A stretch of DNA of 32,000 nucleotides from Pyrodictium delaneyi (GTDB lineage: Archaea > Thermoproteota > Thermoprotei_A > Sulfolobales > Pyrodictiaceae): contig NZ_CP013011.1 of the NCBI RefSeq assembly GCF_001412615.1, positions 990,001 through 1,022,000 of the forward strand, in the 5' to 3' direction. This document shows, piece by piece, positions 3,023 to 32,000 of this stretch. The notes under the pieces are model-generated. The model was given only the letters and a program-made list of their open reading frames with translations, did not search any database and was not told where the DNA came from. Every line of letters starts with the position of its first letter. Position 1 is the stretch's first letter. The position numbers and the translations under genes were made by a program.

Positions 3023-3113
3023 TGGCGCCGGGGGCGGGATTTGAACCCGCGCGGCCTCGACGGCCACCGGCTCTCCAGGCCGGCCCCTTGGTCCGCTCGG
3101 GCACCCCGGCGCC
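3023..3113 (-). tRNA. tRNA-Ser (anticodon GGA), long variable arm, no encoded CCA
   Basis: The minus strand reads GGCGCCGGGGTGCCCGAGCGGACCAAGGGGCCGGCCTGGAGAGCCGGTGGCCGTCGAGGCCGCGCGGGTTCAAATCCCGCCCCCGGCGCCA. It has a 7-bp acceptor stem (GGCGCCG/CGGCGCC), an anticodon stem CCGGC/GCCGG with loop CTGGAGA, a long extra arm and a GGGTTCAAATCCC T-arm. Confidence 0.85.
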
Positions 3114-9427: not shown

Positions 9428-9672
9428 CGACTAGGCTTCCAGCGTTTCCGATTACTCAATACTGTCATACTAAAAACAACCAATGGAGCTAATCAAGCTG
9501 AAGCGGCTCATACCAAGTACTAAGGTATAGTAATATTCATAGAAGACCTTGCAGGGTAAAACGGGTCCAAGAAATAGTACACCACCAGGCCCAAGTTAGG
9601 GCAGAAAGAGACCTAGCAGAGGCAGAGCTGGATGATGGAACTAAAAGCCGGGGAAAGGATTCTTAGTTAGGG

Positions 9673-10140
9673 TTAGTTCTCCTCGTTATTTAAGACTACT
9701 ACTTCGCCGCCAGCTGCTTCAATCTTGCGTATAGCTGATTCACTGGCCGCTGGTACTATTACCTTCACAGGCTTTGTTATGCTTCCGCGGCCTAGCAATT
9801 TGTTGTAGCCTAGACTAGCAAGGTTTACTACTATCTTTCCGCCCTCCTCGCTAGCCTTGCCCTCACGGAGCCATACGTCAAGTTTCTCTGCTAGCTCACC
9901 CACGTTTATCTCGTTCACTTTGACCTCATAGGTTAGTGGCCTATTGAAGCCGTGTTTGCCGAACCATGTAGGAGCATACTTCACTACCCATGTCCACATG
10001 TGCTTGTGCATACCGGCAGCTCCAAAACCGCCGCGGCTACCACTGCCGCGGTGCTGGCCTATGCGGCCCCAGCCCATTGTCCTAGTGCGGCCACGTAGAC
10101 GTCTACTCTTCTTCCTGCGGCGGACAACCATTGCCCACAC
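9673..10140 (-). CDS. rpl15: 50S ribosomal protein L15 (uL15)
   Basis: RRRKKSRRLRGRTRTMGWGRIGQHRGSGSRGGFGAAGMHKH. The start is probably the internal M at 10131. Confidence 0.9.
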   Translation of the reverse strand: MWAMVVRRRKKSRRLRGRTRTMGWGRIGQHRGSGSRGGFGAAGMHKHMWTWVVKYAPTWFGKHGFNRPLTYEVKVNEINVGELAEKLDVWLREGKASEEGGKIVVNLASLGYNKLLGRGSITKPVKVIVPAASESAIRKIEAAGGEVVVLNNEEN

Positions 10141-17418: not shown

Positions 17419-17713
17419 GCCATCCGACCCCCTTGTACCGTTCTAGCCGCCTAAGACGCTCGGGCTGCACTCCCGGTATTTCTTCTCCTCGTACAACAAC
17501 CCATGTGCCGCTGGGCAGTTGGACTAGGAATATAGCGTTTGCCTTAGAGACCCAGCTTGTGTCTCCAGTATTACGCCTCACGAGAAGACCGCGGCGAGTT
17601 TCGAGTTCTACAACTCCCTCGAGGCCACGGAGAGTCGGATCTGGATGGAGTAGAACATGGATTCTAAGGCCCACGAGGGTATGGAAAACTATATTCCACT
17701 CCGTGTGCTTCAA
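17354..17713 (-). CDS. rnp1: RNase P protein component 1 (Rpp29/Pop4)
   Basis: LVGLRIHVLLHPDPTLRGLEGVVELETRRGLLV matches the Rpp29 Sm-like barrel pattern. The slot between rpl29 and rps17 is canonical, with an ATGA overlap to the rpl29 stop. Confidence 0.8.
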   Translation of the reverse strand: MKHTEWNIVFHTLVGLRIHVLLHPDPTLRGLEGVVELETRRGLLVRRNTGDTSWVSKANAIFLVQLPSGTWVVVRGEEIPGVQPERLRRLERYKGVGWLVRAGEKRRYTWRQPTREDMQ

Positions 17714-17943
17714 GCCTTGCTGCCTGCTCCACGCTGATTTGCAAGTTCTTCCTCACGCATAACAGTAAGGATCCTTGCAATGGTCTTTCTTATAGCGCGT
17801 ATAGCGCCCGGGTTCTCGAGTGTACCGACAGCAGCCTTTAGACGTAGCTTTACTAGTTCTTCACGCAACTCCTCAAGCTTCTTTAGTCTCTCCTCGGCAC
17901 TCATCTTTCTTATATCATCAGTCTTTATCATGTACTTGGTCAC
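17710..17943 (-). CDS. rpl29: 50S ribosomal protein L29 (uL29)
   Basis: IRKMSAEERLKKLEELREELVKLRLKAAVGTLENPGAIRAIRKTIARILTV. Confidence 0.88.
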   Translation of the reverse strand: MTKYMIKTDDIRKMSAEERLKKLEELREELVKLRLKAAVGTLENPGAIRAIRKTIARILTVMREEELANQRGAGSKA

Positions 17944-17978
17944 ACGACCTCACCTCCTGAGAGGGATTGTCTAAGCGC

Positions 17979-18689
17979 CTAGCCAGCTTGTTCCTCTGCC
18001 TCTTCGGGCTTGGCCTCCTTTAGCTTCTCGGCCTCCGCAGCGCGCTGCCTCTCTAGCTCCTCTCGTATCTCCTCTATGAACTCTTTAGCCTCTTCAGGCT
18101 GCTTTATGCGTACATAGTCACTGGGCTTCGCTGGCTTCACTATCGTGACTTCTATACCGAATACACCGGGGTTTAGAGTTATGTGCATAACTGCTCTGTC
18201 GACCATATACTCTACCTGATTGCCAGTAGAGTAGACCTTGCCTATACGCACCTTCTCGTAGCGTGCTCTCTCTGTACGTAGCTTACCACTGATGATTATC
18301 TGGGCACCTATGGCTCCCGCGTTCATTATACGACGTGCCATCACGTTAGCTACACGGCGGTAGTACGCACCCCTCTCCAGGAACACAGCTATTCTAGATG
18401 CCACTACACGAGCGTTGAGGTCCGGGTTCTCTACACGGCGCACCGTTATCTGGGGATTCTGCAAGCCAAACTGCTGCTCGAATATAGCAGCAAGCTGCCT
18501 TATGGTCTCGCCTCTCCGGCCAATAATCATTGCCGGACGCTCAGCATCGATGAAAACCTTAGTGCCTAATGGGAACTGTATTATCTGTACGCCAGCATAG
18601 CCTGCACGATAGAATCTCTTGGCTAGGTATTCGTCTATCTTTGTCTGGGCTATCGACTTCTTTATGAAATGCTTCTTTATAAGTACCAT
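17979..18689 (-). CDS. rps3: 30S ribosomal protein S3 (uS3)
   Basis: A KH domain (AERPAMIIGRRGETIRQL) plus the uS3 C-domain and an acidic/Lys-rich tail. Sits in the L22-S3-L29 slot. Confidence 0.93.
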   Translation of the reverse strand: MVLIKKHFIKKSIAQTKIDEYLAKRFYRAGYAGVQIIQFPLGTKVFIDAERPAMIIGRRGETIRQLAAIFEQQFGLQNPQITVRRVENPDLNARVVASRIAVFLERGAYYRRVANVMARRIMNAGAIGAQIIISGKLRTERARYEKVRIGKVYSTGNQVEYMVDRAVMHITLNPGVFGIEVTIVKPAKPSDYVRIKQPEEAKEFIEEIREELERQRAAEAEKLKEAKPEEAEEQAG

Positions 18690-18691
18690 GG

Positions 18692-19174
18692 TTACTCTTC
18701 CTCCGCCACAACTACCTCTATATGGCTGTACTTCTTGAACCTAGGGGTGGAGCGGCCGAAGGCGCGTGGCATCCACCTCTTAAGCACACGCCCCTTGTGA
18801 ACAGCTATATGTACAATGCGCAGCTTCTCCGTGTCAAGCCCTTTGACCTCAGCGTTGTTGGCCACATTGTCAAGGAGCTTGAGCAGGATACGAGCAGCCT
18901 TGACCGGATAGCGGCCTATCGGCCACTTGTACCTAGCAGCGAGGCCACGGTGGTGAGCCTGCTTTCTAGCATACCTGCGCACAGGTATAGGCTCCTTACC
19001 AGCAGCAACACGCTCGAGAAACTTACGAGCCTCCTCCAGCCTCATACCACGTATGACACGAGCTAACTCGACAATCTTCTTGTACGATATGGGCGCATCC
19101 CATACCATAGCCTTAGCTGAACGCTCCTCGTCAACTCGTACTGAGTAATGCCATGTCGGCAACCCGAGGCCCAC
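18692..19174 (-). CDS. rpl22: 50S ribosomal protein L22 (uL22)
   Basis: AKAMVWDAPISYKKIVELARVIRGMRLEEARKFLERV...IVHIAVHKGRVLKRWMPRAFGRSTPRFKKYSHIEVVV. GTG start at 19174. Confidence 0.9.
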   Translation of the reverse strand: MGLGLPTWHYSVRVDEERSAKAMVWDAPISYKKIVELARVIRGMRLEEARKFLERVAAGKEPIPVRRYARKQAHHRGLAARYKWPIGRYPVKAARILLKLLDNVANNAEVKGLDTEKLRIVHIAVHKGRVLKRWMPRAFGRSTPRFKKYSHIEVVVAEEE

Positions 19175-19221
19175 CTCTCTTGCTACAGCATCCCCAGGAG
19201 GCGCTCACAGCACTGCACGCC

Positions 19222-19228
19222 TAAATAA
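19222..19228 (-). promoter_or_regulatory. TATA-like box (TTATTTA) about 50 nt upstream of the rpl22 start
   Basis: The minus strand reads ...cacTTATTTAggcgtgcag... upstream of GTG 19174. A new promoter is needed if rpl22 is no longer co-transcribed with rpl23. Motif only, with no TSS data. Confidence 0.3.
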
Positions 19229-19677
19229 GTGAATAGAGCGCTACCGGATAGTATCTACGGAGCTGCCGGGGATGAGCGAGCTGACCTGCACAGAGCACAC
19301 GCCGTGACGAGAAGACCATCTGTTGGCGACCCTCGATTCCTCTACTACACCGTAAGAAGTGAAAGTGTTAGGGAGGCCTGACGCCTAGGGGTGGAGCCTC
19401 CACGCGCTCACCGAGCCCCGAGCGACACGGGGCACTCGCGCGGGCCTGCTCCAGCCTAGTGTAGGATCAGACACCTCTATCAAGTCTTCTCTATATTCGC
19501 CCAAGATGCTCCAGTATCCCGACGACCTTTGGATAATGGATGGTGTTGGGGGATTACAATACAGTCTAGGAGGCACATTATACTATATACACTGAACAAG
19601 GATCAGAGTAGAAGTGTGTACCAAATATAGTGGGATACAATGGATATAGACGCCATCTTAAAACCATCGTATGGTGG

Positions 19678-19938
19678 TTAGAGTAGGCCTAGCCGTGCGG
19701 CCACATCAGTGGCGCTGTACTCCTTGGCCAGCTTAACGTAGGCTTTCTTCTCGCCACGGGGAGTTATTAGGGTGTTAACCTTCTCTACCTTGACTCCAAA
19801 CGCTTGTTCAACCGCCCTCTTGATATCATGTTTAGTGGCCTTCCTATCTACTATGAATGTCAGCGTGTTCTGCTCCTCGATTAGTCTCAACGCTTTCTCG
19901 CTCTGTACCGGACGTATTATGATACTCCAGGCGCTCAT
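19678..19938 (-). CDS. rpl23: 50S ribosomal protein L23 (uL23)
   Basis: [64 protein letters not shown]. Confidence 0.9.
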
Positions 19939-19952
19939 TGTACGACACCCCC

Positions 19953-20783
19953 TTAGGCTAGTAGTATTCCATCAAACCTCTTAGATAGTTCACTCAGTGC
20001 GGACTTGCTAACTACTGTTAGTCTCCCAGGTACACCGCCAGGAGCAAGCTGTAGCACGTTGACATGCCAAGGGTCTGCTACATCTACACCAGGTAGGCTT
20101 GAGACAGCCCTTGCAAGTGGAGACTTGTGGTTGCTTAGTATGAAGAGTATACTCCGCGGTGTTATGTACCGCCTCCCGCGACGCTTACCCTTACCAGCGC
20201 GTATCCTTGTCCTCTCCTTTGCGCGCTCTATGTCGACCCAGACGCCTAGCTTCTCTAGGAGTGCACGTGCCTCGCGAACCCTGGTTATAGCTGTCTCAAC
20301 CTCATCATCTATGACTATTGGGAGGACCTCTGCCGTGAACTTGTGGCCACGCTTTTCGACGAATTCCTTCCTAGCAGTAGCAGCCAGCGCCGAAGCTGTA
20401 GCAAGCTTCTTCTCCTTCTTGTTGATCTCCTCGTGTATCCTCTTCTCTACGCGAGGTGGGTGCGCCAGGTGACCGCCTACAGCAGAGTTTATGAAGGCTG
20501 CACGACCTAGGCCGGGGATGCGAGGCACTCTGGCAATACCTAAGCCTACTCCAAAGCTCCTAGCAGTCGTCCTCTTGCCAGCCATGGGGTCGCGGCCCTT
20601 AGGCTGGAGTCTCGCTGTGAACTCTGATAGGAATGCGCGTCTTATCAGGTCGACGCGTACCGGCAGCCCATAGACCTTGGGTAGCGCTACCTCGCCGCTC
20701 TTTTCGCCTGCAACGTTGAATACCGGGACGACTGGCGGCTCCGCCGCTAGTAGGAATACCATAGAGCCCACTTTACCTGCCAT
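19953..20783 (-). CDS. rpl4: 50S ribosomal protein L4 (uL4)
   Basis: [27 protein letters not shown]...[10 protein letters not shown]. The likely start is ATG at 20762 (MVFLLAAE...). Confidence 0.9.
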
Positions 20784-20820
20784 AGTATCGCACCCCAGGG
20801 GCTGCTGCCATGCTAAAGGG

Positions 20821-21864
20821 TTAATTGCCTTGCTTGCTCTGTAAGCTGATGTATGTTATCTTAGGTGCTGCCTCTGGGATCCAGCGTGGCCTCACTGGGT
20901 GGCGGAGTACTATCGGTCTCTTGGGTGTGCCTGGTATGCTTCCAGCCAGCATCACGTAAGTGCTCCTCACTATACCGTAGTGGAGGAAGCCTCCAGCAGG
21001 TGTTACCTCTAGACCATTCTCGCCTATCTTTATGATGCGCTTGTTGTACTCTGTTCTCCTGTGGAAGCCCATCTGGCCCGGCTGGGGTACCTCGCTCCAC
21101 GAGAACGTCGTCGCGGGGCCTCTGCTACCGGGACCGCTGCGGCTACCCTTCCTGTGCTTGTGCCACTTGGGCAGCTCCTTTACACCAAACCTCTTTATCA
21201 CGCCCTGGAAGCCCTTACCCCTGGTTACCGCTATTACGTCTACGAATTGACCCTCCTTGAAGACGTCTGTTATCTTGAGTGGGTTGCCGAGGAGTTTAAC
21301 GGCATAGTTAAACCTCTCGTCTATGCTGTTCCCGCCACCTATCTTTATCTCTATGAGGTCTGGCTTCTTCTTGCTTAGACCGCCTACGAGCCTCGGTTGT
21401 GTAGCAGCTATTATTCTTACATCGTATACCTTTTCGAGTCTCTCTTCAAGCTTTTTGATCGCCTTCTCGGTATCAGGGAAGCGTAGCCGGGGTATCGCAC
21501 GGTATATGTCGAGCTTATACTTCTCTATGAGGGTTTCAGGCTGAGCCCATGCCTCACCTAGAGTGTAGAGGCCTATGTTTGGATCGTAGCCGTATACACG
21601 GACGGCTGTGACTATCATCGGTGGTGCTTCAACAACCGTTACTGGCATGAATATCTCTCTACCCTGCGTAAGCGAGCCAGGCTCATCGTCTATCACGAAT
21701 ACGTGAGTCATTCCGGCCTTGTAGGCTAGGAATGCAAGCGGTAGAGGCGTCTCACTCTGAACCTCTGGCCACGTTTTGATCCTGGGGACTATGCTGGAAG
21801 CTCTCTTCCTAGGTCTTACAGCCAGGCTGCCTCTACGAGGCGCGTGCTTCTTTCTTGCGCCCAC
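20821..21864 (-). CDS. rpl3: 50S ribosomal protein L3 (uL3)
   Basis: HAPRRGSLAVRPRKRA...FLAYKAGMTHVF...VTRGKGFQGVIKRFGVK..PRKHKHRKGSR-type motifs. Confidence 0.95.
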   Translation of the reverse strand: MGARKKHAPRRGSLAVRPRKRASSIVPRIKTWPEVQSETPLPLAFLAYKAGMTHVFVIDDEPGSLTQGREIFMPVTVVEAPPMIVTAVRVYGYDPNIGLYTLGEAWAQPETLIEKYKLDIYRAIPRLRFPDTEKAIKKLEERLEKVYDVRIIAATQPRLVGGLSKKKPDLIEIKIGGGNSIDERFNYAVKLLGNPLKITDVFKEGQFVDVIAVTRGKGFQGVIKRFGVKELPKWHKHRKGSRSGPGSRGPATTFSWSEVPQPGQMGFHRRTEYNKRIIKIGENGLEVTPAGGFLHYGIVRSTYVMLAGSIPGTPKRPIVLRHPVRPRWIPEAAPKITYISLQSKQGN

Positions 21865-22848: not shown

Positions 22849-23432
22849 CCGGAGCTAGAATTAAGCAAACATAATTGGCACCCATACGCATAAGGACTCG
22901 TCGCCGCGAGCTACGAACAACCACGGCCATATACACAGCGGCGAAGGCAGTGTAAAAACACATCACACTGGTATTAGATGTCTCACCGAAATCGGTGTGG
23001 TTACCGACGCCCCTTGCCACGACGCTGCTGTTGCTGCCTAGCCTGCTTGGCTGCGGCTTTTACCTCCTCCTTTGCCATGAATAGGCTTGTCCTCTGCCGG
23101 CCACCCATCCTCTACACCCCGCAAGGGACAGGGAAGAGGGCTAGGTACATTACTGCTACGCTTCCTCTCCCATATCCTGGGCCGGTGACGTGTTTGCCGA
23201 GTGCTGAGACATCGGACTGATTCAGTTGTGCTGAATATCCCCTTCTACTGAGGCCGTCATGTAGAATCTACGCAACCGTTGATCATTATATGGGGCTCAG
23301 ACGGGTTCACCTCGTCACCGCATAGCCAGGAATGCTAGGCGTTTGCACCCCTCATCACAGCCCGTAGACGGAAGGGTAGGTCCTGATAAATATTGAGCAG
23401 CGCGGACGCCGCTAAACTAGGGCCTGGGGGAC

Positions 23433-24008
23433 TTGGCTAGGCGAAGGCTACGGTTTAGCTGCTTATTCTGTGAGCACTGTTGCTATTTTAGTGCTGAGCA
23501 CGAGATGCCAATAGTCTTCCCCTGGGAGAAGCGGGAACTAGAAAAAATAGCAGCGGAAATGAATATTAAGCTAGGGTTCAAACCATCGCAAGCCTTCATA
23601 GACGAGGACGGGGCATGTGTCGTAACACTCTATAAGTGGATCATACAAGGGTTCTGCCCGTTTTTTAATCGAGCCAGTAGGCATTGTATGATACACGAGG
23701 ATAAACCGCTAGCGTGTAAGATGTATCCTCTGCTTGTAGAGCTTCCCTCTGGAAAGCTAATGGCCTCCGGTAAATGCGACTGGATAAAACAGCACGGACC
23801 AAAACTGATGGAGCATCTGTCTACACGCCCAGAGCTTATACCAGAACTATTCCCTAACGAGTTTGAGGCCGCAAAAAGAGTATTCATAGAGTTCATGACT
23901 ATAAATTCATTTATAGAGAGACACGGGCTACGGCCAATGGACGTTAGTAAATTAAGTGAATGCGCAAGCGTTTACGACATAGACGAGTATATGGCGAGGT
24001 CTGAGTAG
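23433..24008 (+). CDS. YkgJ/UPF0153-family cysteine-cluster protein (CxxCxxCC zinc/iron-chelating domain)
   Basis: N-terminal FSCLFCEHCC matches CxxCxxCC, and a later FCPFFNRASRHCMIHEDKPLACKMYP matches the second half of the family signature. The first motif lies upstream of the first ATG, so a TTG start at 23433 is required. Confidence 0.75.
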   Translation: MARRRLRFSCLFCEHCCYFSAEHEMPIVFPWEKRELEKIAAEMNIKLGFKPSQAFIDEDGACVVTLYKWIIQGFCPFFNRASRHCMIHEDKPLACKMYPLLVELPSGKLMASGKCDWIKQHGPKLMEHLSTRPELIPELFPNEFEAAKRVFIEFMTINSFIERHGLRPMDVSKLSECASVYDIDEYMARSE

Positions 24009-24010
24009 CC

Positions 24011-24289
24011 TTGGGGAAGGAGCGGCGCCTCGTTAGGATATTCTTCAACACATATTATACTGATGTAGCTGAGGCTGTTCTCAAGGAGCTTAAGAGCCTA
24101 GGCTACGAGGTAAAGGCTACTAATTCTAGAGTAGTCCCAGAGCTATACTACGTTGAGATAAATGTCGGCAATACCGATCCCAGAGATGTTGCAGAAAAAG
24201 TACGGGCCCTGCTAGAAGATACTAGGGAAAAACACAGAGGCCTTGTGTTCGGCATCAAAGTGTATAGTATCGATACGTCTTCATCATAG
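24011..24289 (+). CDS. hypothetical small protein (92 aa, predicted alpha/beta), coupled to the YkgJ-like gene
   Basis: The ORF starts 2 nt after the upstream stop and has no internal Met, so it needs a TTG start. The alternating beta/alpha pattern (RIFFNTYY...AEAVLKELKSLGYEV...YYVEINV...) looks protein-like. No family recognised. Confidence 0.45.
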   Translation: MGKERRLVRIFFNTYYTDVAEAVLKELKSLGYEVKATNSRVVPELYYVEINVGNTDPRDVAEKVRALLEDTREKHRGLVFGIKVYSIDTSSS

Positions 24290-24314
24290 CCGGCTTCTCA
24301 GCTACTACTGGGGG

Positions 24315-26333
24315 CTAACTGCGGAGTATTCTACGCATAATGGATGGTATGTCCTGGGGAGTTCTTATGATGTAGAATCTTGTATAGGGCTTGATTCTGT
24401 TCAGCACTCTGGCGTCATGCTTTGGTGGAAGAACTATGGTTATTTGCCATCCTTTTAATCTTAGTTCACGGATCACCTCTTCGACAGTGGCATCGGTTGC
24501 TATGGTTTGTTTGAGATCACTTATGAGCACTATATGACGTGGTGTTGAGCCTTTAGCTGCTGAGCGCAGAGCATCAACTATGTTTGTGTAGCCTGAAAAC
24601 CTCGTCGAGAGTATTAGGTCTACTACATGAAGTGGGTTGATGTGCTTTATGTTTCTGTATATTGTTATGTTTTCGTCGAATACTATGAGCTTTGATATGC
24701 TCGTGGCCAGCGCAGATGCTGCTAGAATCGTGTAGAGTGCGTATGACCGCATACTGCCGCTCTTATCGACGACCACTATGTATTGTCTTGTAGTGTGCTT
24801 GGTTATCCTGGTTAACGGGCTGGGGTTAAAGCGTACTATCTTTTCTAGGGTCTTGCGTATGTGAAGTCTTCCCTTGGTTTTGCTTAGACGGATTTTCCGA
24901 GACGGTCTTAGCCCGGTATTTCCACGAGATTCACGCCAGAGACTCCGCATAAGCATTATCGCGTAGCTTCGTACTCTCTTATTGTTTGCATCGTTATATA
25001 TAGTGCTGAGTAGCTTTAGTGCCTCGAACACATCCATATTCTTTACAATGCTCTTAATGAGTGAATAGATGTCGCCACGTTCTGCGGCATCAATTAATTG
25101 CTTAAGCCGCGTTATCTCAGATTCTACTATTTGCGCTAAATCAATGTTTTCGTAATGGTCTTTTATTTTACTCCATTCTTCTACTGCACGTGTATACTCA
25201 TATTCTGCATAGTCCAATAGGGCACGTGTATCGTCAACTAGACTTTTTGCGAGATACTTTTTCGCGGTAGCAAGCCTATTAAGGACTTCTAGGGCCTCGC
25301 TTTGGCTTGATCCTATACTACTTAGTAGGCTTATCTGGTTCCTATTGAGGATCTCTGTTACGACACCGCGTCGGGAAGCTTGCATACCTATAGCTTTGAG
25401 AGCTATTTCGACTGCACCCTCCTTATTGTACGTAGAGAGTTCAGCTACGACATCTAGTACTGCCTCTTTTCCAAAGTCTTTGACTGCCCTTTCTGCTAGC
25501 TTTGGGTTCTGCTCGAGTAGATAGCGCAAATGCTTCTTCTGGAGCAGTTTTTCTTTGCGTAGAATCTCGTAGATGCTTGATGCGTCGCTATAGTGTTCTC
25601 CTTTGTTTATCTTTTCCTCTATGGTCCTTGACACAATGTATCTTAGATGTTCATTCTTGCCAGCGTGCCGATAGAGTCTTGTTAGCTCGTCTATGCTGAG
25701 ATCTTCGAGATCTATGTAGTTGAGTAGTTCAGTTCCCATTGACGCTACTATGCTACTGTTACGGGTTATGTTACGTCTTATTACATCCTTTATTGCATCT
25801 TTATAGTCTCTGTAGTGTCTTGCTAGCTGTTCTGCTATTCTACGCGCCTGGCTACTGTGTACGACATACTCGCCTTTTCGTCCTCTACGTATTATTCCTA
25901 GTAGCTTGAGTCTAGCGTATGCACTCTGTGCTTTCTCGCTAGTCAGTCTCCGATGGCGTATCTTTGAACCATATCGTAGTCCTAGTGCCTGCAGATCCTT
26001 ATCTATTTCAGCCTCTATGTGTTTTGCAACATATGCTTGGCTGGGCTGACGCCGTTTTGTGATTTCTCTAACTATCTCATGTATTATGGCGCCTTCACGC
26101 ATTCTCTTGGCGTATACAGATGAAAGAACGAACGCTATATCGTCTGGAGCAAGGGTTTTTGCACCGGATACCGCCATGTACAGTGCTAGTAGGCGGGCGG
26201 CCTCGACTACTTCAGCCGTTGATACGTGAAGCCCCCTCTTTCTCGCTTCTAGTGCAGTCTCGTAAGCAATCTGGTACATAGCTTGATCGCTGAGCTTATG
26301 GGTGTAGCCCGAATACTTTCTCGAGGGCCTCAT
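24315..26333 (-). CDS. VWA/MIDAS-domain protein, CoxE-like C-terminus, with an N-terminal helical region of about 515 aa and unknown function
   Basis: The C-terminal 157 aa (about 24318-24788) carry a complete MIDAS motif: VVVDKSGSM (DxSxS, D codon at 24765-24767), FSGYTNIVDAL (Thr) and VLISDL (Asp). They are preceded by GRLHIRKTLEKIVRF..., the basic segment typical of CoxE-like VWA proteins. A GGAGG SD lies 9-13 nt before ATG 26333, and the gene overlaps the MoxR gene by 38 nt. Confidence 0.85.
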   Translation of the reverse strand: MRPSRKYSGYTHKLSDQAMYQIAYETALEARKRGLHVSTAEVVEAARLLALYMAVSGAKTLAPDDIAFVLSSVYAKRMREGAIIHEIVREITKRRQPSQAYVAKHIEAEIDKDLQALGLRYGSKIRHRRLTSEKAQSAYARLKLLGIIRRGRKGEYVVHSSQARRIAEQLARHYRDYKDAIKDVIRRNITRNSSIVASMGTELLNYIDLEDLSIDELTRLYRHAGKNEHLRYIVSRTIEEKINKGEHYSDASSIYEILRKEKLLQKKHLRYLLEQNPKLAERAVKDFGKEAVLDVVAELSTYNKEGAVEIALKAIGMQASRRGVVTEILNRNQISLLSSIGSSQSEALEVLNRLATAKKYLAKSLVDDTRALLDYAEYEYTRAVEEWSKIKDHYENIDLAQIVESEITRLKQLIDAAERGDIYSLIKSIVKNMDVFEALKLLSTIYNDANNKRVRSYAIMLMRSLWRESRGNTGLRPSRKIRLSKTKGRLHIRKTLEKIVRFNPSPLTRITKHTTRQYIVVVDKSGSMRSYALYTILAASALATSISKLIVFDENITIYRNIKHINPLHVVDLILSTRFSGYTNIVDALRSAAKGSTPRHIVLISDLKQTIATDATVEEVIRELRLKGWQITIVLPPKHDARVLNRIKPYTRFYIIRTPQDIPSIMRRILRS

Positions 26334-27399
26334 CTACAATTTCCTCCTCTCCAACCCTCTTGTAGAGAACTATAGTTGCTGCATCTACGACTTCACTTAC
26401 TGTCACTTGCTGTTTGCCACGCAAGGATGCTAACCTGCCAGCTATTCGGGACCATAGAACCGTGTCTGCAGGCCCCGGCTTATATGCAGCTTTTTGGCGT
26501 AGAAGGTTAACTACCTGTACCATTCCCTCGAGTATCTTAGGTTCTAGCTCGACATCTACATCGTATCTGAGCCGGATTATCTCTATCTCGACTTCAGGGG
26601 GCGGATAGTTGAATGGTATTCTTACAACTCTCCGTAGAAATGCATCACTTAGCTCGCTCTGAGCATAGTCCTCTGGGTTACTGGTGAATATTACTTGGAA
26701 ACCCTCGCCTTTTGCGTAAAAAATCTTCCTGAGTTCAGGTACTATTATGCGACGTTTATCTATTATATCTAGGAGCATGTTTTGGAATTCTTCATTACTT
26801 CTCCTTATCTCGTCGACCAGTACACCAGCGTCGAGTATTAATGCTGCAAGCAGGGGGCGTGGTATGAAACTTTTCTCGTTAAACCCATACTTAAACGCCA
26901 TGAGTGGGTGAAAGTCTCCAATAACCCTATATTCGTCATAGTTCTCACTACATGGTATGACAAGAGCTGGCTTGCCTGCCCATAGTGTTAGTATTGCTTC
27001 ACCTATCTCCGTCTTTCCTGTACCTGGCGGCCCTTCGAAGAGCACTGGCCGCCCTGCAAGAAAAGCCGCTACTACTAACGTTACTAGCTTCTTATCTACA
27101 AGCAGTTTATACTCGGTTTTTAGGATTTCCATCATTTTATTAACGTTCCTAATTGGTTTTCGTTTATATTTACTCATTATCTCAGAATATATATTAACAA
27201 CCTTCTCTTCAACACTTTCCATAGCGTTATCCGGGTTATTCTCTTCACCCATGCCAACCATTCCTACTATAGCCTCTACATCTAGACCCTCTTGACTCTC
27301 CACATTCTTTCTGTCCATTACTACACCCTTCATTACTATTCCCAGAAGGTGTAGGGGATAATTTACTACTCCACCAGGTTCTTTACATACCTTGGCCAT
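26296..27399 (-). CDS. MoxR-family AAA+ ATPase (CoxD/APE2220-like) with an acidic N-terminal extension of about 70 aa
   Basis: Walker A is LFEGPPGTGKT (27011-27034) and Walker B is GVLVDEIRRS. The single AAA+ module of about 300 aa is typical of MoxR, and the gene pairs with a downstream VWA gene. A GGAG SD lies 4 nt before ATG 27399. Confidence 0.88.
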   Translation of the reverse strand: MAKVCKEPGGVVNYPLHLLGIVMKGVVMDRKNVESQEGLDVEAIVGMVGMGEENNPDNAMESVEEKVVNIYSEIMSKYKRKPIRNVNKMMEILKTEYKLLVDKKLVTLVVAAFLAGRPVLFEGPPGTGKTEIGEAILTLWAGKPALVIPCSENYDEYRVIGDFHPLMAFKYGFNEKSFIPRPLLAALILDAGVLVDEIRRSNEEFQNMLLDIIDKRRIIVPELRKIFYAKGEGFQVIFTSNPEDYAQSELSDAFLRRVVRIPFNYPPPEVEIEIIRLRYDVDVELEPKILEGMVQVVNLLRQKAAYKPGPADTVLWSRIAGRLASLRGKQQVTVSEVVDAATIVLYKRVGEEEIVDEALEKVFGLHP

Positions 27400-27520
27400 T
27401 GTCTCCTCGGAGAACCCTAGGTCATATTTGATGCGCTTAATACTAATTATGGTCCGACTGTACCGCTATTAGATGTTATGTGCTTCCCTTTCATAGTATA
27501 CTAAGTCGGGGTACGCTAGT

Positions 27521-27973
27521 TTGGGCAAGGCGAGAAGAAGTAAAGAGGACAATGTTATCTATAGTGTATGGATACGTCACGGTCCTGATACAATCCACTA
27601 TGATATGGTATTCGAAGAAGATTGTATAAGACTTATCTATCTGGGTGAGTATTGGCAGCGTGTTAGACCTAGAACCGGACTACAACAGCGAGTAGACCTG
27701 TTTATATACTCGCTTAGGAAGCGACGCGAACGAAACATGGGAGAGGCTAGTCATGGATTTACTATTGATTATTGCAGCATAAAGAGCTACAATTTAGTTA
27801 GACCGCGTATCGCATCACCTCAAGGCGATGTAACCCCTGGTGTTCTAGAGCTGACGCTCCGGGACGGGAGACGCGTACGTATAGAGTTCTCACCTAAGGT
27901 CTATGAGGTTGTTAAGTCTGCTGTAAAGAGATATGTGATCAGGGGCATAGAGAAATGTAGGGATGGCGGCTAG
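27521..27973 (+). CDS. hypothetical protein (150 aa), divergent from the MoxR gene
   Basis: ORF with a TTG start preceded by GGGGT. Basic N-terminus, mixed beta-rich sequence (VLELTLRDGRRVRIEF). No family recognised. Confidence 0.45.
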   Translation: MGKARRSKEDNVIYSVWIRHGPDTIHYDMVFEEDCIRLIYLGEYWQRVRPRTGLQQRVDLFIYSLRKRRERNMGEASHGFTIDYCSIKSYNLVRPRIASPQGDVTPGVLELTLRDGRRVRIEFSPKVYEVVKSAVKRYVIRGIEKCRDGG

Positions 27974-28032
27974 CGCGTCCTAGGGCGATGAAGAGGGCCC
28001 GATAGACTGAAATGTGTTAGTGTGATGAAGGA

Positions 28033-28593
28033 TCAACCGTCGGAGCCTTTGGATAACTTATTCACGAATCTTATGAATATGTAGTCCTTTGACGTTTCAC
28101 CTACATATCTCCCATAATTTGGCAAACATGCTTTCATACTGTGTGCCTTCTTTAGGCTCGTGACTACTGCTGCAGTCTTAGTCACACGGTCTATCTCATT
28201 TATAGCCCTTAGTTTATCATCTACAAGGTCTATTACTGTGAACGATAAGGTATAGTCTATGCTTTTTACACGTAGCGGTATATTCTCAGCATCAGCCTCC
28301 ACAAGTTCTGCAAGATGCCTTAAGTTGAGCATGCTTATGCGACTCTTTGCACGTTCTAACATCCCGGGCGATAGATCAAGACATATATACAATTTTACTT
28401 CAGCTAGTTTGCTTGTAGACTTTAGGTATTCCAGTAATAGCCCGGTTCCACAACCGTCATCTAATACTGTCCCACACACTCCGACAACATTTAGTGCCAA
28501 CTTGTATTTTTCAAACTGCTCTTCCCGATAGAGCTCGTCGTATCCAGCGCTTGTCACGTTGTATTTCTCTCTTAGTACAGCCTTTCTACCCAA
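28033..28593 (-). CDS. class I SAM-dependent methyltransferase (substrate unknown)
   Basis: Motif I is TVLDDGCGTGLLLEYL and the post-I acidic residue lies in ICLDLSPGMLERAK. About 186 aa. Motif I precedes the first ATG, so the start must be TTG at 28593 or a nearby GTG. Confidence 0.75.
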   Translation of the reverse strand: MGRKAVLREKYNVTSAGYDELYREEQFEKYKLALNVVGVCGTVLDDGCGTGLLLEYLKSTSKLAEVKLYICLDLSPGMLERAKSRISMLNLRHLAELVEADAENIPLRVKSIDYTLSFTVIDLVDDKLRAINEIDRVTKTAAVVTSLKKAHSMKACLPNYGRYVGETSKDYIFIRFVNKLSKGSDG

Positions 28594-28764
28594 TTATGCT
28601 CTCCCTACCAATACTCAACACTTACCCTATTACAGCACTCCCAACACTCTATAGTGTTCATCTTTGCCCGAGGATACACAAACAGATGACCTAGAAAATG
28701 TTTTCAGCACAAATACAGCATATGGCTAGGGATGTTATTGACTAAAGCACACTGTTTGTTAATG

Positions 28765-28797
28765 AAAATATTGCTTGTGATCATTTTGCGTAAAAAC
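28765..28797 (-). terminator. oligo-T tracts (T5 and T4) downstream of rps19
   Basis: The minus strand after stop 28818 reads cgctgtatatgctcccgtatgTTTTTacgcaaaatgatcacaagcaataTTTTcatt. This fits rpl2-rps19 being an independently terminated unit. Confidence 0.35.
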
Positions 28798-28817
28798 ATA
28801 CGGGAGCATATACAGCG

Positions 28818-29294
28818 CTACTTTAGGGCCACGTGTAAGCTGCTTCTTGTAGCCTTGAGTCCAGGCTCTCCGTGCTGTACCTGGCGGCATGTTGGGCTGA
28901 ACTCACCTAGGTAATGGCCTATCATTTCAGGTGTTATGCGCACCGGCACGAATTCCTTTCCATTGTAGACCGCTATCGTCATTCCAATCATTTCTGGCAG
29001 TATTATCATGTCTCTCACATGTGTTTTTACTACGACTTTTTTGCCTTGTAGTATCTTCTGACGAGCCTTACGGATCTTCCAAAGGAGTCTACGCTGAGGG
29101 TCTGTTAGGCCTCTTAGTAAGCTTCTGCGCTGGCGAGCAGGTAGTAGCTTTATGAATGTGTCCATGGGCATTGAGAGTAGCTCTTCTAGGGTGTAGCCGC
29201 GGTAACGGAACTTTCTCCACTCTTGCGGCAGTGTCTCAAGCCACTTTTTCATTTCCTCATCTAATTGTGGTTTTACACGCTGCATCGTATACAC
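28818..29294 (-). CDS. rps19: 30S ribosomal protein S19 (uS19)
   Basis: [39 protein letters not shown]...[29 protein letters not shown]...[23 protein letters not shown]. The likely start is ATG at 29285, preceded by GGGTG. Confidence 0.93.
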
Positions 29295-29333
29295 CCAGGG
29301 TAGTGGGGATTGGTGACAAGTGGGGGTTTAACG

Positions 29334-30050
29334 CTACCTCTTCTTGCGGCCAGTCGAGCGCGCTGCTATGTGGCCGACCTTTCTGCCTGGTGGAGCATCT
29401 CTGGATACTGTTGTTGGGAAGCTTGGACTCTGGTGGCTACCACCACCATGTGGGTGGTTCACAGCGTTCATTGCTACACCGCGTACGCGTGGCCATACAT
29501 GGGCCTTAGCCTTCCACTTGTAGTAGGCCGCACCAGCTTTGAGTAGGGGCTTCTCTAAGCGACCAGCACCTGCAACTATTCCTATAGTTGCTCTAGCATC
29601 ATTAGGGACTTCTTTCACTTTCCCGCTGGGTAACTGTACTATAGTCTTATTACCGCTACGACCAAGTATGACAGCATAAGCCCCGGAAGAGCGGGCTAGC
29701 TTCCCACCATCACCAGGCCTTATCTCTATATTATATATCTGCGTACCCTCAGGTATCTTGCCTACTGGAAGTATGTTACCGTTAGCAGGTTTAGCATCCG
29801 GCCCGACCTCTATTATTTGGCCAACATACATACCTTCAGCTGCAGGGATCCAGAACTCCTCACCATTCTCGAGCACTACATGAGCTAGTGGAACCCAGCG
29901 GCCGGGATCATGCACTAGTTCCACTACGCGTCCTCTTAGAGTGGCTGGCGATAGAGGCGGGTATTTGGCCGGCGCTGGGTGTAACCACGGCTTACTGCGA
30001 TATACTGGCGAGCCCTTACCTCTACGCTGTACTATCAAGCGCTTACCCAT
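29334..30050 (-). CDS. rpl2: 50S ribosomal protein L2 (uL2)
   Basis: MGKRLIVQRRGKGSPVYRS...GNILPVGKIPEGTQIYNIE.RPGDGGKLARSSG...VRGVAMNAVNHPHGGG. Confidence 0.95.
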   Translation of the reverse strand: MGKRLIVQRRGKGSPVYRSKPWLHPAPAKYPPLSPATLRGRVVELVHDPGRWVPLAHVVLENGEEFWIPAAEGMYVGQIIEVGPDAKPANGNILPVGKIPEGTQIYNIEIRPGDGGKLARSSGAYAVILGRSGNKTIVQLPSGKVKEVPNDARATIGIVAGAGRLEKPLLKAGAAYYKWKAKAHVWPRVRGVAMNAVNHPHGGGSHQSPSFPTTVSRDAPPGRKVGHIAARSTGRKKR

Positions 30051-31461
30051 AGCGTAGCACCCGTCCCCAGTGCGTCGCCCCTGGTATACTCTGACTCTTA
30101 ACTGTTATCGGTATAGGGAGTATCTTGAAAGGAATCGCTCTCTGCGCCTGCTGGTAGCGGAGAAGAGCTTCGCCAACACCTAGTCTACGAAGCACATCGA
30201 GATCCTCATACACGACACCACTATACCTACTGACATCTCTTATGTATACATCATCTACTGATCCGAACATAATCACATTGCTGATATTATTCCATACTTC
30301 AGAGCTATAGTCGCTTGGCTGTTGCGATGAAAGAACGAGACTAATATTGCTACTCCTGCCTTCACGAACTAACCTTCTAACAACATCACTGTTCTTAATT
30401 CTCCAAAACTCGTCTATTACAAGTACCGAACTCACACTATTGTTTCGAAGCACATCAAAGATGGTATCTAATATAGTTTCTAGCTGGATATACTTTTCAT
30501 TCTCACTTAGATACGCCAAGTCTAATACCATAATACCGTGGAAGCTATCACTAAATAAGTTGGAGACAATTAAGTGATGATAACTATATCCATCCTCTAC
30601 TACAACATGTTTTGCTAGTCTGGTCCCCTTCAAAAACCTCCAAACATCTCCCTTGGGATCTACCAACACTGCTTTTACGTCGTAAAGTAACGTAGCCAGT
30701 AATGCAACTAGGACTGCAAGGGTTGTCTTCCCCCTACCAGTTGGCCCCACAATTAAAGTATGTTGAGCACCCCTATTATCCCATAAAGGTAGCCCGACAA
30801 GTTTTCCCAACACCAGGTCGTGTCCGATAGGAACGGTTTTCACACCATCAAGGATCTTACCTAACATGCGTACATACTCCATCCAACTTAAACTCGAGCC
30901 TATAATGCTACTGAGTGATTGAATAATATTCCCACTATTGTTTTTTAAAAAACTCACACTTAGGCATTTACGTTTAGGTTTACAACCAAGTACGGCAAGC
31001 ATATCAATAACACTATTGTAATTTTCTTCAATACTTTTTGTACTACCACATACTAGTATGTATAGTGCCGGCTTGACGGGATCATCATAAACCATAATGT
31101 TTTCATATATCTTCCTAAGCACCTCAAGTTTGTTTCTTGCACGCATATTGTTAGGATTGCGTTCTAGCTCAACCTCGTAGGATAGTATTTTGGACTCTAG
31201 AATCCTCGCAGCATAATTACCTCTAACATGTTTATAGAGTAGCATTATGCCACATATTCTTCTATCCAGTAACTTAGATTTGTTGCCCAGTAGCTTTGTG
31301 AAGCATGTCTCGTCGCCCTTAATCTCGATGAGTACGCCAAGAACGCCATCTGTTAGTTCCGAGACACAAAGAGTATTCACAACTTTATCTCTACCCTTTG
31401 TAAGCTTTACTAGCTTGTATAAATACGTAGCAATGGTACTTATAATCATGTAAATCACCAA
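30043..31461 (-). CDS. VirB4/TrbE/CedB-like P-loop ATPase (AAA_10/DUF87-like), low GC
   Basis: Walker A is LIVGPTGRGKTT (30724-30747) and Walker B context is VLVIDEFWRI, resembling the hhhDEAW of VirB4/TraC-type ATPases. A later LVLSSQQPSD follows (TQ..D-like), and there is an N-terminal non-ATPase domain of about 230 aa. The more likely start is ATG at 31449, preceded by GGTGA at -11..-7. The stop overlaps the rpl2 ATG. Confidence 0.75.
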   Translation of the reverse strand: MVIYMIISTIATYLYKLVKLTKGRDKVVNTLCVSELTDGVLGVLIEIKGDETCFTKLLGNKSKLLDRRICGIMLLYKHVRGNYAARILESKILSYEVELERNPNNMRARNKLEVLRKIYENIMVYDDPVKPALYILVCGSTKSIEENYNSVIDMLAVLGCKPKRKCLSVSFLKNNSGNIIQSLSSIIGSSLSWMEYVRMLGKILDGVKTVPIGHDLVLGKLVGLPLWDNRGAQHTLIVGPTGRGKTTLAVLVALLATLLYDVKAVLVDPKGDVWRFLKGTRLAKHVVVEDGYSYHHLIVSNLFSDSFHGIMVLDLAYLSENEKYIQLETILDTIFDVLRNNSVSSVLVIDEFWRIKNSDVVRRLVREGRSSNISLVLSSQQPSDYSSEVWNNISNVIMFGSVDDVYIRDVSRYSGVVYEDLDVLRRLGVGEALLRYQQAQRAIPFKILPIPITVKSQSIPGATHWGRVLRYG

Positions 31462-31631
31462 CTTAGAGTTCTTTTAACAATCATAAATAGAACAATATTT
31501 ATCAATGATATCAGTATTATTGTTATATTTTTTGAATATAATCCCTCAATAACACCATATAATGATAATGCTAAAGCAATATGTAGAGACCTTCTGAATG
31601 TTATATTCGTTATAGCCTTTGTCTGCTTCAT
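31455..31631 (-). CDS. 58-aa two-helix hairpin membrane protein (candidate VirB2/CedA1-like pilin); below the ORF-track cutoff
   Basis: My own translation gives MKQTKAITNITFRRSLHIALALSLYGVIEGLYSKNITIILISLINIVLFMIVKRTLSW*. A GGTGA SD lies 8-12 nt upstream of the ATG, and the stop is 5 nt before the ATPase ATG at 31449. Basic N-terminus followed by two hydrophobic helices joined by a short turn. Confidence 0.45.
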   Translation of the reverse strand: MKQTKAITNITFRRSLHIALALSLYGVIEGLYSKNITIILISLINIVLFMIVKRTLSW

Positions 31632-31656
31632 CCTAATTCACCTTTACTAAGGCTGA

Positions 31657-31938
31657 TTAGTCGAATATTATGCGGGGCGACGATGCACCTATCAGCCTAG
31701 CAAAACTTATGGTCATCATAGACATTATGGTCAAGTATGAAAATACAGTTACAGGAAACGCGGTTCCGTAGACTATGTAGTACACTATCGCGTCCTCCAT
31801 GGTCATGTTAGGGTAATTGTAGCCTTCACTTATTTCTAAATTATATGTATAGTTATCTATTCTTTTATTGAATTTAATGCTAAGTAATTTGATGCCGTCC
31901 GGTACTCTTAGACTGAAAATTATTGTCCTTACTTGCAT
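31657..31938 (-). CDS. hypothetical protein with a C-terminal hydrophobic anchor (93 aa), first complete gene of the AT-rich operon
   Basis: A GGAGG SD lies just upstream of ATG 31938. The N-terminal part of about 55 aa is beta-rich, followed by AIVYYIVYGTAFPVTVFSYLTIMSMMTISFARLIG. The stop is 25 nt before the 58-aa ORF. An upstream ORF (…HRLENSSKNIM*, stop at 31965) continues beyond the window. Confidence 0.45.
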   Translation of the reverse strand: MQVRTIIFSLRVPDGIKLLSIKFNKRIDNYTYNLEISEGYNYPNMTMEDAIVYYIVYGTAFPVTVFSYLTIMSMMTISFARLIGASSPRIIFD

Positions 31939-32000
31939 ACCCCTCCAAGGGTTCGTTAGTTCAACTACATTATATTCTTCGAAGAATTCTCTAGCCGGTG

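Follow-up and report, generated by a model that had tools for sequence, protein, structure and literature searches.

Ced, which serves for DNA import in Crenarchaeota, is a machine that evolved from a type IV secretion system (T4SS). It is said to have been described originally in Sulfolobus, in a 2016 PNAS paper by van Wolferen. Here we analyze a stretch of 32,000 nucleotides from Pyrodictium delaneyi (the window), in which the region from 30043 to 32000 on the minus strand very likely represents the promoter-distal part of a native chromosomal ced operon with the gene order cedA1-cedA-small hairpin gene-cedB. The Ced system was defined in Sulfolobus, with CedD added in 2025 (PMC11868833, PMC11823120), and the CedA1 pilus has been solved in Aeropyrum pernix (Beltran et al. 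2023; PMC9905601). CedA1 homologues were reported in all Pyrodictiaceae in a 2024 preprint (bioRxiv 10.1101/2024.12.30.630787), and NCBI names the orthologues in P. abyssi and Hyperthermus butylicus 'DNA import protein CedA1'. Ced in the Pyrodictiaceae is already recognized, and the P. delaneyi locus is an unstudied member of a known system; in its gene content, homology, fold and synteny it is a ced operon, and an apparently foreign AT-rich operon is settled as the host's own, with DNA import as its presumed function.

The P. delaneyi locus shares with the Ced of the Sulfolobales what appears to be its set of components, the cedA1-cedA-small gene order, a CedA with an N-terminus resembling CedA1, and a location near the ribosomal-protein supercluster. 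Relatives of P. delaneyi also carry a TAGTTTC sequence upstream of cedA1 of the type found in the DNA-damage-responsive element (DDRE), and the families that match the two ATPases best are CedB and CedD (the latter in three of five orthologue loci). The differences are that CedA is approximately 260 amino acids in the Sulfolobales but 479 here, where it also contains a β-rich domain and an additional helix at the C-terminus, that the P. delaneyi CedB is shorter (468-472 amino acids versus a 590-position model), and that all of the genes, including a cedD-like one, lie here within 8.3 kb, whereas Sulfolobus keeps cedB and cedD at separate loci. The A. pernix Ced is similar in belonging to the Desulfurococcales, in being chromosomal, and in having a CedA1 without a signal peptide and a pilin gene directly upstream of cedA. 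A structure has been solved for the A. pernix pilus. A. pernix is said to be without CedA2, whereas in P. delaneyi cedA is followed by a small two-helix gene.

The Ted system of the Thermoproteales (TedA/TedB/TedC/TedD) also has a trio of VirB2-, VirB6- and VirB4-like proteins, and in its vicinity are genes for DNA repair and for an ATPase resembling HerA or CedD. However, the signal peptide of TedC is cleaved and its sequence is not similar to that of CedA1. A bona fide VirB4 is present there as TedB, but the motor of the P. delaneyi ATPase is of the HerA clade. The clear CedA1 pilin and an ATPase that matches CedB best (84 bits versus 24 for VirB4_CagE) are not those of a Ted system.

The ced genes of Pyrodictium delaneyi

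The list of open reading frames (ORFs) together with reading of the frames shows three co-directional genes between 30043 and 32000, all on the minus strand. These are the 3' end of cedA (31657-32000, the last 114 of 479 codons, with the gene running on beyond the window), a gene for a 58 amino acid two-helix membrane protein (31455-31631) in the position of cedA2 between cedA and cedB, and cedB (30043-31461). The initial annotation of the window, made from its sequence, had counted at least four ORFs, with a 93 amino acid protein (31657-31938) as a separate gene; this frame meets no stop before the window edge (…SPAREFFEEYNVVELTNPWRGMQVR…) and encodes the C-terminus of the 479 amino acid CedA. 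A partial ORF had also been placed with its end at 31965, but the TAG there (31965-31967) belongs to another frame, and it terminates no ORF of at least 40 amino acids. The 58-residue hairpin ORF, with GGTGA ahead of its ATG, and the 468-472 residue ATPase ORF are real, and the Walker A, Walker B context and SSQQPSD motifs quoted for the latter are all present.

For sequence beyond position 32000 we used locus L001, which extends ±10 kb around the identical ATPase gene in P. delaneyi GCA_002194565.1. The gene order there is PCNA, Rpo13, a polytopic 624 amino acid DUF87 ATPase (on the opposite strand), an Lhr helicase, cedA1, cedA, the small gene, cedB, rpl2, rps19 and a methyltransferase. As had been predicted, the rest of the machine lies directly past the window edge, where the remainder of cedA is found along with cedA1, so that both the VirB2-like pilin (CedA1) and the polytopic membrane protein (CedA) that were sought upstream are present.

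The cedA1 gene (L001 8079-8348, outside the window and 17 nucleotides upstream of cedA) encodes an 89 amino acid protein without a signal peptide that scores 131.5 bits with the NCBIfam model Ced_CedA1, above its equivalog cut-off of 100. Over 72 residues it aligns with the pilin of the A. pernix Ced pilus determined by cryo-EM (8DFU; E value 2.1e-25). CedA (479 amino acids, L001 8366-9805, its C-terminus corresponding to window 31657-32000) matches the NCBIfam model Ced_CedA (E value 1.4e-36, 126.4 bits) at model positions 4-197 of 259. A profile of CedA also matches the 8DFU pilin with residues 6-64, which fits the published likeness of its N-terminus to CedA1 (PMC9905601).

The structure of CedA was examined by AlphaFold2 (AF2) modeling of a proxy that is 95% identical to the P. 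delaneyi sequence. In this model, which has a predicted local distance difference test score (pLDDT) of 84, a helical domain (residues 1-207) is followed by β strands (217-427) and a C-terminal helix (433-469). The portion encoded within the window runs from the last part of the β-rich domain through the membrane helix at 433-469 to a C-terminal tail with the pattern ARxLGAxxPRIxF that is conserved in an alignment of 20 sequences. A long CedA of approximately 450-515 amino acids occurs in 26 protein clusters, including that of H. butylicus and those of many Desulfurococcales metagenome-assembled genomes (MAGs), and the ARxLGAxxPRIxF tail is common to them; Desulfurococcales CedA is about twice the length of Sulfolobales CedA, with the β-rich domain of approximately 210 amino acids and the extra C-terminal membrane helix. 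A Foldseek search with the CedA model returned nothing significant, the β region having weak Ig/Fab-, adhesin- and transthyretin-like matches with E values above 0.007. There are four N-x-S/T sequons in the β-rich domain of the P. delaneyi protein, and some CedA homologues have a weak CarboxypepD_reg match.

The start of cedB is more likely the ATG at 31449 than the TTG at 31461, giving a product of 468 rather than 472 amino acids; GGTGA lies five nucleotides upstream of this ATG, and the 468-residue form is that of the NCBI record 'ATP-binding protein [Pyrodictium delaneyi]'. The protein contains a Walker A (P-loop) motif, GPTGRGKT, at residues 239-246 (30724-30747, minus strand), a Walker B motif, VLVIDE, at residues 346-351 (30409-30426, minus strand), extended as VLVIDEFW through W353, and the sequence SSQQPSD at residues 378-384 (30310-30330, minus strand), which corresponds to the HerA/FtsK-type 'SQxPxD' sensor region and aligns with the equivalent motif in HerA structures in a single-sequence PDB search. 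In an alignment of 32 CedB homologues, residues G239, P240, G242, G244, K245, D350, E351, W353, R369 and Q380 are invariant and D384 is almost so.

Among NCBIfam models the ATPase matches CedB best (E value 7e-24, 84.3 bits), with lower scores for CedD (32), HerA models (14-27, with 14-18 for the HerA equivalogs) and VirB4_CagE (24), and the CedB family is matched by all 32 of the aligned homologues. An exhaustive HMMER search finds 272 relatives, 27 of them with E values below 1e-30. A scan of genome contigs with the single CedB sequence gave no confirmed locus, and a repeat of the scan with the CedA alignment gave 23 loci. The AF2 model of CedB (pLDDT 82, predicted template-modeling score 0.70) has as its best PDB fold match TrwK/VirB4 of the R388 T4SS (8rtb_A; E value 2.6e-17, query-normalized template-modeling score (TMq) 0.54). 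The earlier association of this ATPase with the VirB4 type is borne out by this fold and by the CedB family assignment; its best family is CedB, and not TrbE, TraC or TraG.

The similarity to the R388 T4SS lies in the fold that CedB shares with the inner-membrane complex (TrwK/VirB4-TrwM/VirB3-TrwI/VirB6; 8RTB, 7O41), and the gene order of pilin, membrane platform, small hairpin and ATPase is also that of bacterial T4SSs, the hairpin gene immediately preceding the ATPase gene in the way that virB3 precedes virB4. In contrast to those systems, the P. delaneyi locus has no relaxase, no gene for a VirD4-type coupling protein, and no VirB5 or VirB7-10, and it is chromosomal, non-mobile and presumed to import DNA.

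CedB differs from the Sulfolobales proteins in several respects. The 468-472 residue sequence begins its match to the 590-position NCBIfam model at position 125, and it is without the N-terminal membrane segment and the insertion between Walker A and Walker B of the Sulfolobales model. The N-terminal helix of the Pyrodictium protein offers no convincing membrane anchor, and the C-terminal tail, which is modeled with low confidence by AF2, holds a conserved 'ITVK…GRVLRYG' sequence.

The gene for the 58 amino acid protein has a G+C content of 26.6%, carries GGTGA six nucleotides upstream of its ATG, and ends with a TGA that overlaps the cedB Shine-Dalgarno sequence. Its product is predicted to form two hydrophobic helices, and a two-helix ORF of 53-69 amino acids is present at the same position in 26 of 27 Desulfurococcales loci. 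CedA2 has been described as not conserved and as absent from A. pernix. We treat the 58-residue protein as a positional counterpart of CedA2; the similarity link to the Sulfolobales CedA2 is weak, as comparison with a Saccharolobus ORF in the equivalent position gives a probability of 57% with hhalign and that ORF itself barely touches the CedA2 model. In L005 the small two-helix ORF between cedA and cedB (9527-9706) overlaps both neighbors and is unannotated in the MAG, suggesting that such genes may be systematically overlooked, which could explain why CedA2 has been reported absent outside of the Sulfolobales.

Chromosomal context and alternative explanations

The order PCNA-cedD-like-lhr-cedA1-cedA-small gene-cedB-rpl2-rps19 is retained in a Pyrodictium-like genome (L002), in H. 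butylicus (L003), and in several Pyrodictiaceae MAGs (L004-L009); cedB is directly upstream of rpl2 in all nine Pyrodictiaceae loci (L001-L009), and the cedA1-cedA-cedB order is found in each of the 28 Desulfurococcales loci examined. Beyond Pyrodictium and Hyperthermus, synteny of the locus and the housekeeping genes around it extends to many Desulfurococcales MAGs. Protein identities between L001 and L002 are graded, with values of 96% for L2, 90% for PCNA, 89% for CedA1, 72% for Lhr, 68% for CedA, 57% for the small protein and 55% for CedB, indicating that the locus has diverged in place at rates that differ by gene. The ced genes are likewise beside the ribosomal-protein supercluster in Saccharolobus and in an Acidilobaceae genome, and this placement points to an old chromosomal position. 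By these comparisons of gene order and sequence, the ced operon appears to be ancient, vertically inherited and chromosomal.

A strong deviation in base composition had been taken in the initial annotation as a sign of foreign origin. The AT-richness is real, with 38.9% G+C in 30043-32000 and 50.5% in the whole window, but the baseline of this comparison is the ribosomal-protein block at 50-57% G+C, and non-ribosomal neighbors on either side are at 41-46%. An integrated conjugative plasmid or integrative and conjugative element of the pNOB8 type, acquired horizontally and coding for a T4SS that exports the element's own DNA, could have left the operon behind as a remnant or carry it as cargo. 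This would explain the low G+C content, and the VirB4-like fold of the ATPase and its weak Pfam matches to the P-loop regions of TrwB, TraG and T4SS-DNA_transf could be read in the same way. We nevertheless consider this to be highly improbable, because there is no integrase domain within 21 kb at the locus, no tRNA in L001 (the sole Rfam match in the window, a tRNA-Ser at 3023-3110, is far from the locus), and no att-like or long direct repeat recovered by a repeat search. Identical housekeeping flanks (PCNA, Rpo13, Lhr, L2 and S19) in Pyrodictium, H. butylicus and Pyrodictiaceae MAGs largely refute a mobile element, Lhr (40.7% G+C) and the methyltransferase (41.9%) are equally AT-rich, and the composition of the ced genes co-varies with that of the host, at approximately 40%, 53% and 61% in three lineages, with cedB at 53% and 61.5% in loci of 55% and 61% G+C. 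A family best matched by CedB rather than by TrbE, TraC or TraG argues in the same direction, and a foreign origin or an integrated pNOB8-type element is therefore not supported.

The other two alternatives concern function. If the ATPase were a HerA-type repair helicase or translocase, acting as a HerA-NurA-like end-resection motor or in anti-phage defense, the small ORFs would be unrelated to it; the sequence profile of the motor domain is indeed nearer to HerA/FtsK (2e-17 for 4d2i versus 3e-9 for the VirB4 structure 4ag5), a single-sequence PDB search gave marginal matches to HerA only, and the Lhr repair helicase is nearby. However, HerA-NurA systems have in common with CedB a similar motor sequence and the SQxPxD motif, whereas CedB is without a NurA, Mre11 or Rad50 partner, has a different N-terminal domain, and is linked to membrane and pilin genes. 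No nurA, mre11, rad50 or Sir2/DUF4297 partner is found within 20 kb, the HerA models are far below CedB in bit score, and linkage to cedA1 and cedA is strict in the 28 loci. The fold of the whole protein, including its N-terminal domain, superposes better on VirB4 (TMq 0.52-0.57) than on HerA (0.41-0.45), with the HAS-barrel N-terminal domain being a HerA feature, and a HerA-clade motor joined to a VirB4-like N-terminal domain is the published description of CedB (PMC11868833). Neither a clustering of the ATPase with HerA/NurA nor a lack of channel and pilin genes is thus observed, and we give the repair helicase almost no credence. A genuine Ced apparatus serving a role other than damage-induced DNA import, such as a constitutive adhesive or pilus structure, DNA export, or bidirectional exchange in concert with the cannulae network, is unlikely, though less so than the repair helicase. 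The extra β-rich domain of approximately 210 amino acids in CedA with its weak adhesin and Ig-like matches, the degenerate DDRE-like element of Pyrodictium, a habitat free of ultraviolet light and a Ups system that is unreported for the group (PMC9905601) would all be compatible with it, as would the effect of CedA1 and CedE on export in Saccharolobus islandicus (PMC11868833). On the other hand, all of the core import components are conserved, including the CedD-like ATPase, the TAGTTTC element is intact at the equivalent position in close relatives, and the sequences give no sign of changed function.

Several observations weigh against identification of the locus as a DNA-importing ced operon. 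The scores of CedB (84.3 bits) and CedA (126.4 bits) do not reach the NCBIfam equivalog cut-offs of 700 and 330, respectively, so that functional orthology is not guaranteed. In the case of CedA this reflects a C-terminal half that differs, and the CedA and CedB equivalog models appear to be tuned to the Sulfolobales; homologues from the Desulfurococcales and Acidilobaceae also fall below the cut-offs. VirB6 is not recovered by Foldseek with the CedA model. The 58-residue protein has no Pfam or NCBIfam match and none to CedA2 at E ≤ 0.1, and its family has no similarity to the CedA1 profile (hhalign probability 0.5%), ruling it out as a CedA1 paralogue. No Ups system is reported for Pyrodictium, and the degenerate damage element of P. 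delaneyi makes damage-inducible expression uncertain. What stands from the earlier description is a CedB/VirB4-like ATPase accompanied by small membrane proteins of a crenarchaeal DNA-transfer machine; the foreign origin and the parsing of ORFs at the window edge do not.

Proposed mechanism and candidate regulatory elements

By homology with the described Ced systems, we infer that the P. delaneyi apparatus forms a pilus and imports DNA, and the oligomeric state and regulation proposed below are likewise putative. CedA1 would polymerize with lipids into a conjugative-type pilus, as suggested by its homology, and CedA would be a VirB6-like membrane platform or channel, beginning with a hairpin like that of CedA1 and continuing with a helical membrane domain, a probably extracellular β-rich region of approximately 210 amino acids, and a C-terminal membrane helix. 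CedB, with its catalytic motifs intact, is assumed to form an ATPase ring on the cytoplasmic side, driving pilus assembly, the pulling of DNA inward, or both. The 58 amino acid protein, which is predicted to be translationally coupled to cedB, would be a membrane subunit that either corresponds to CedA2 or, in the manner of VirB3, anchors CedB, which in Pyrodictium is without a convincing membrane helix. The CedD-like membrane ATPase and the Lhr helicase, 0.1-5 kb upstream, probably cooperate with these components.

We also entertain, tentatively and as a rather less probable extension, that the Desulfurococcales, Pyrodictium among them, carry a distinct, consolidated Ced in which the CedD-like ATPase, Lhr, CedA1, long CedA, the small two-helix protein and a Sulfolobus-type Orc1-2 damage element are brought together in one neighborhood. 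Lhr could then be the component, otherwise missing, that processes DNA on its way in or out, the β-rich ectodomain of CedA could replace partner recognition by Ups pili or form the base of the pilus, and the overlooked, near-universal small protein may anchor the helix-less CedB as VirB3 does VirB4. If this is correct, the damage regulon and the full list of parts would be older than the divergence of the Sulfolobales from the Desulfurococcales. Leads for study of Ced include the linkage to Lhr and the CedD-like ATPase, a small hairpin gene where CedA2 is thought to be absent, the CedA β-rich domain in lineages without Ups pili, an Orc1-2-type damage element outside of the Sulfolobales, and a putative ribosomal-protein promoter in the cedB tail.

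In Sulfolobus, the DNA-damage-responsive element bound by Orc1-2 (AATAGTTTCRG…; PMC6061795) has TAGTTTC as its core, and this sequence occurs between -63 and -72 relative to the start of cedA1 in nine related Desulfurococcales loci (L003-L008, L017, L025 and L028), with a background rate of 1.55e-4 per position. The two Pyrodictium loci have a degenerate element, AAGTTCGG in P. delaneyi (L001 8010-8017, 62-69 nucleotides upstream of cedA1) and TAGTTACGG in L002.

At the other end of the operon, the stop codon of cedB overlaps the start of rpl2 by 8 nucleotides (ATGGGTAA). Within the coding tail of cedB there is a conserved A/T box, ATAACAGTTAAGAG, at 30095-30108 on the minus strand, 46-59 nucleotides upstream of the rpl2 ATG. 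L001-L003 have ATAACAGTTAAGAG and the other loci GTTTAAGAAA or CAGTTTAAAC; the distance of the box to rpl2 is constant in L001-L008 while its flanks diverge, and it encodes the conserved 'ITVK' of the CedB tail. This is probably a TATA/B-recognition element promoter for rpl2-rps19 that is embedded in cedB, and such a promoter would explain conservation of the ITVK…GRVLRYG sequence and constrain the C-terminal peptide of CedB. In spite of the 8 nucleotide overlap, obligatory co-transcription of rpl2 with ced is judged the less likely arrangement because of this conserved TATA-like box approximately 50 nucleotides upstream of rpl2. A Shine-Dalgarno-like GGGTG follows downstream of the A/T box.

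Neighboring genes

The 624 amino acid ATPase upstream of the operon (L001 3134-5008, minus strand, outside the window) has a hydrophobic N-terminal region of approximately 230 amino acids and a DUF87 motor. The P. delaneyi protein scores 58 bits with CedD versus 69.5 with HerA, so that HerA is higher in L001; the two are tied in L002, and CedD is the best match in three of the five loci compared (L003, L004 and L005; 62-93 bits). Divergent from it across a 60 nucleotide spacer, and just upstream of cedA1, is a gene for a 956 amino acid Lhr-type helicase (L001 5069-7939, plus strand). A DUF87 ATPase and Lhr are often upstream of ced in Desulfurococcales loci, and a literature search found no paper linking Lhr to Ced; judged from gene neighborhoods, the linkage of ced to the small gene and to Lhr and the CedD-like ATPase may be new.

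Directly downstream of cedB are rpl2 (29334-30050, minus strand; Pfam Ribosomal_L2_C, 1.4e-46), coding for ribosomal protein L2, and then rps19 (28818-29294, minus strand; Pfam Ribosomal_S19, 3e-33). This pair (28818-30050) is absent from its usual site between rpl23 (19678-19938) and rpl22 (18692-19174) in the ribosomal block at 17710-21864 on the minus strand, where there is a gap of approximately 500 nucleotides. It is displaced 9.4 kb upstream of rpl23 to a position right after cedB, and the same arrangement is seen in all of the Pyrodictiaceae loci examined.

A region of approximately 20 kb (window 23000-32000 together with L001 1-11000) that contains the housekeeping genes for PCNA, DUF72, MoxR-VWA and the methyltransferase has a G+C content of 41-47%. 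Within it, at window 24315-27399 on the minus strand, a gene for an AAA_5 (MoxR-like) ATPase overlaps that for a 672 amino acid VWA_CoxE protein; the two form a conserved pair next to the ced locus, with its orientation inverted in some relatives (L004 and L005).

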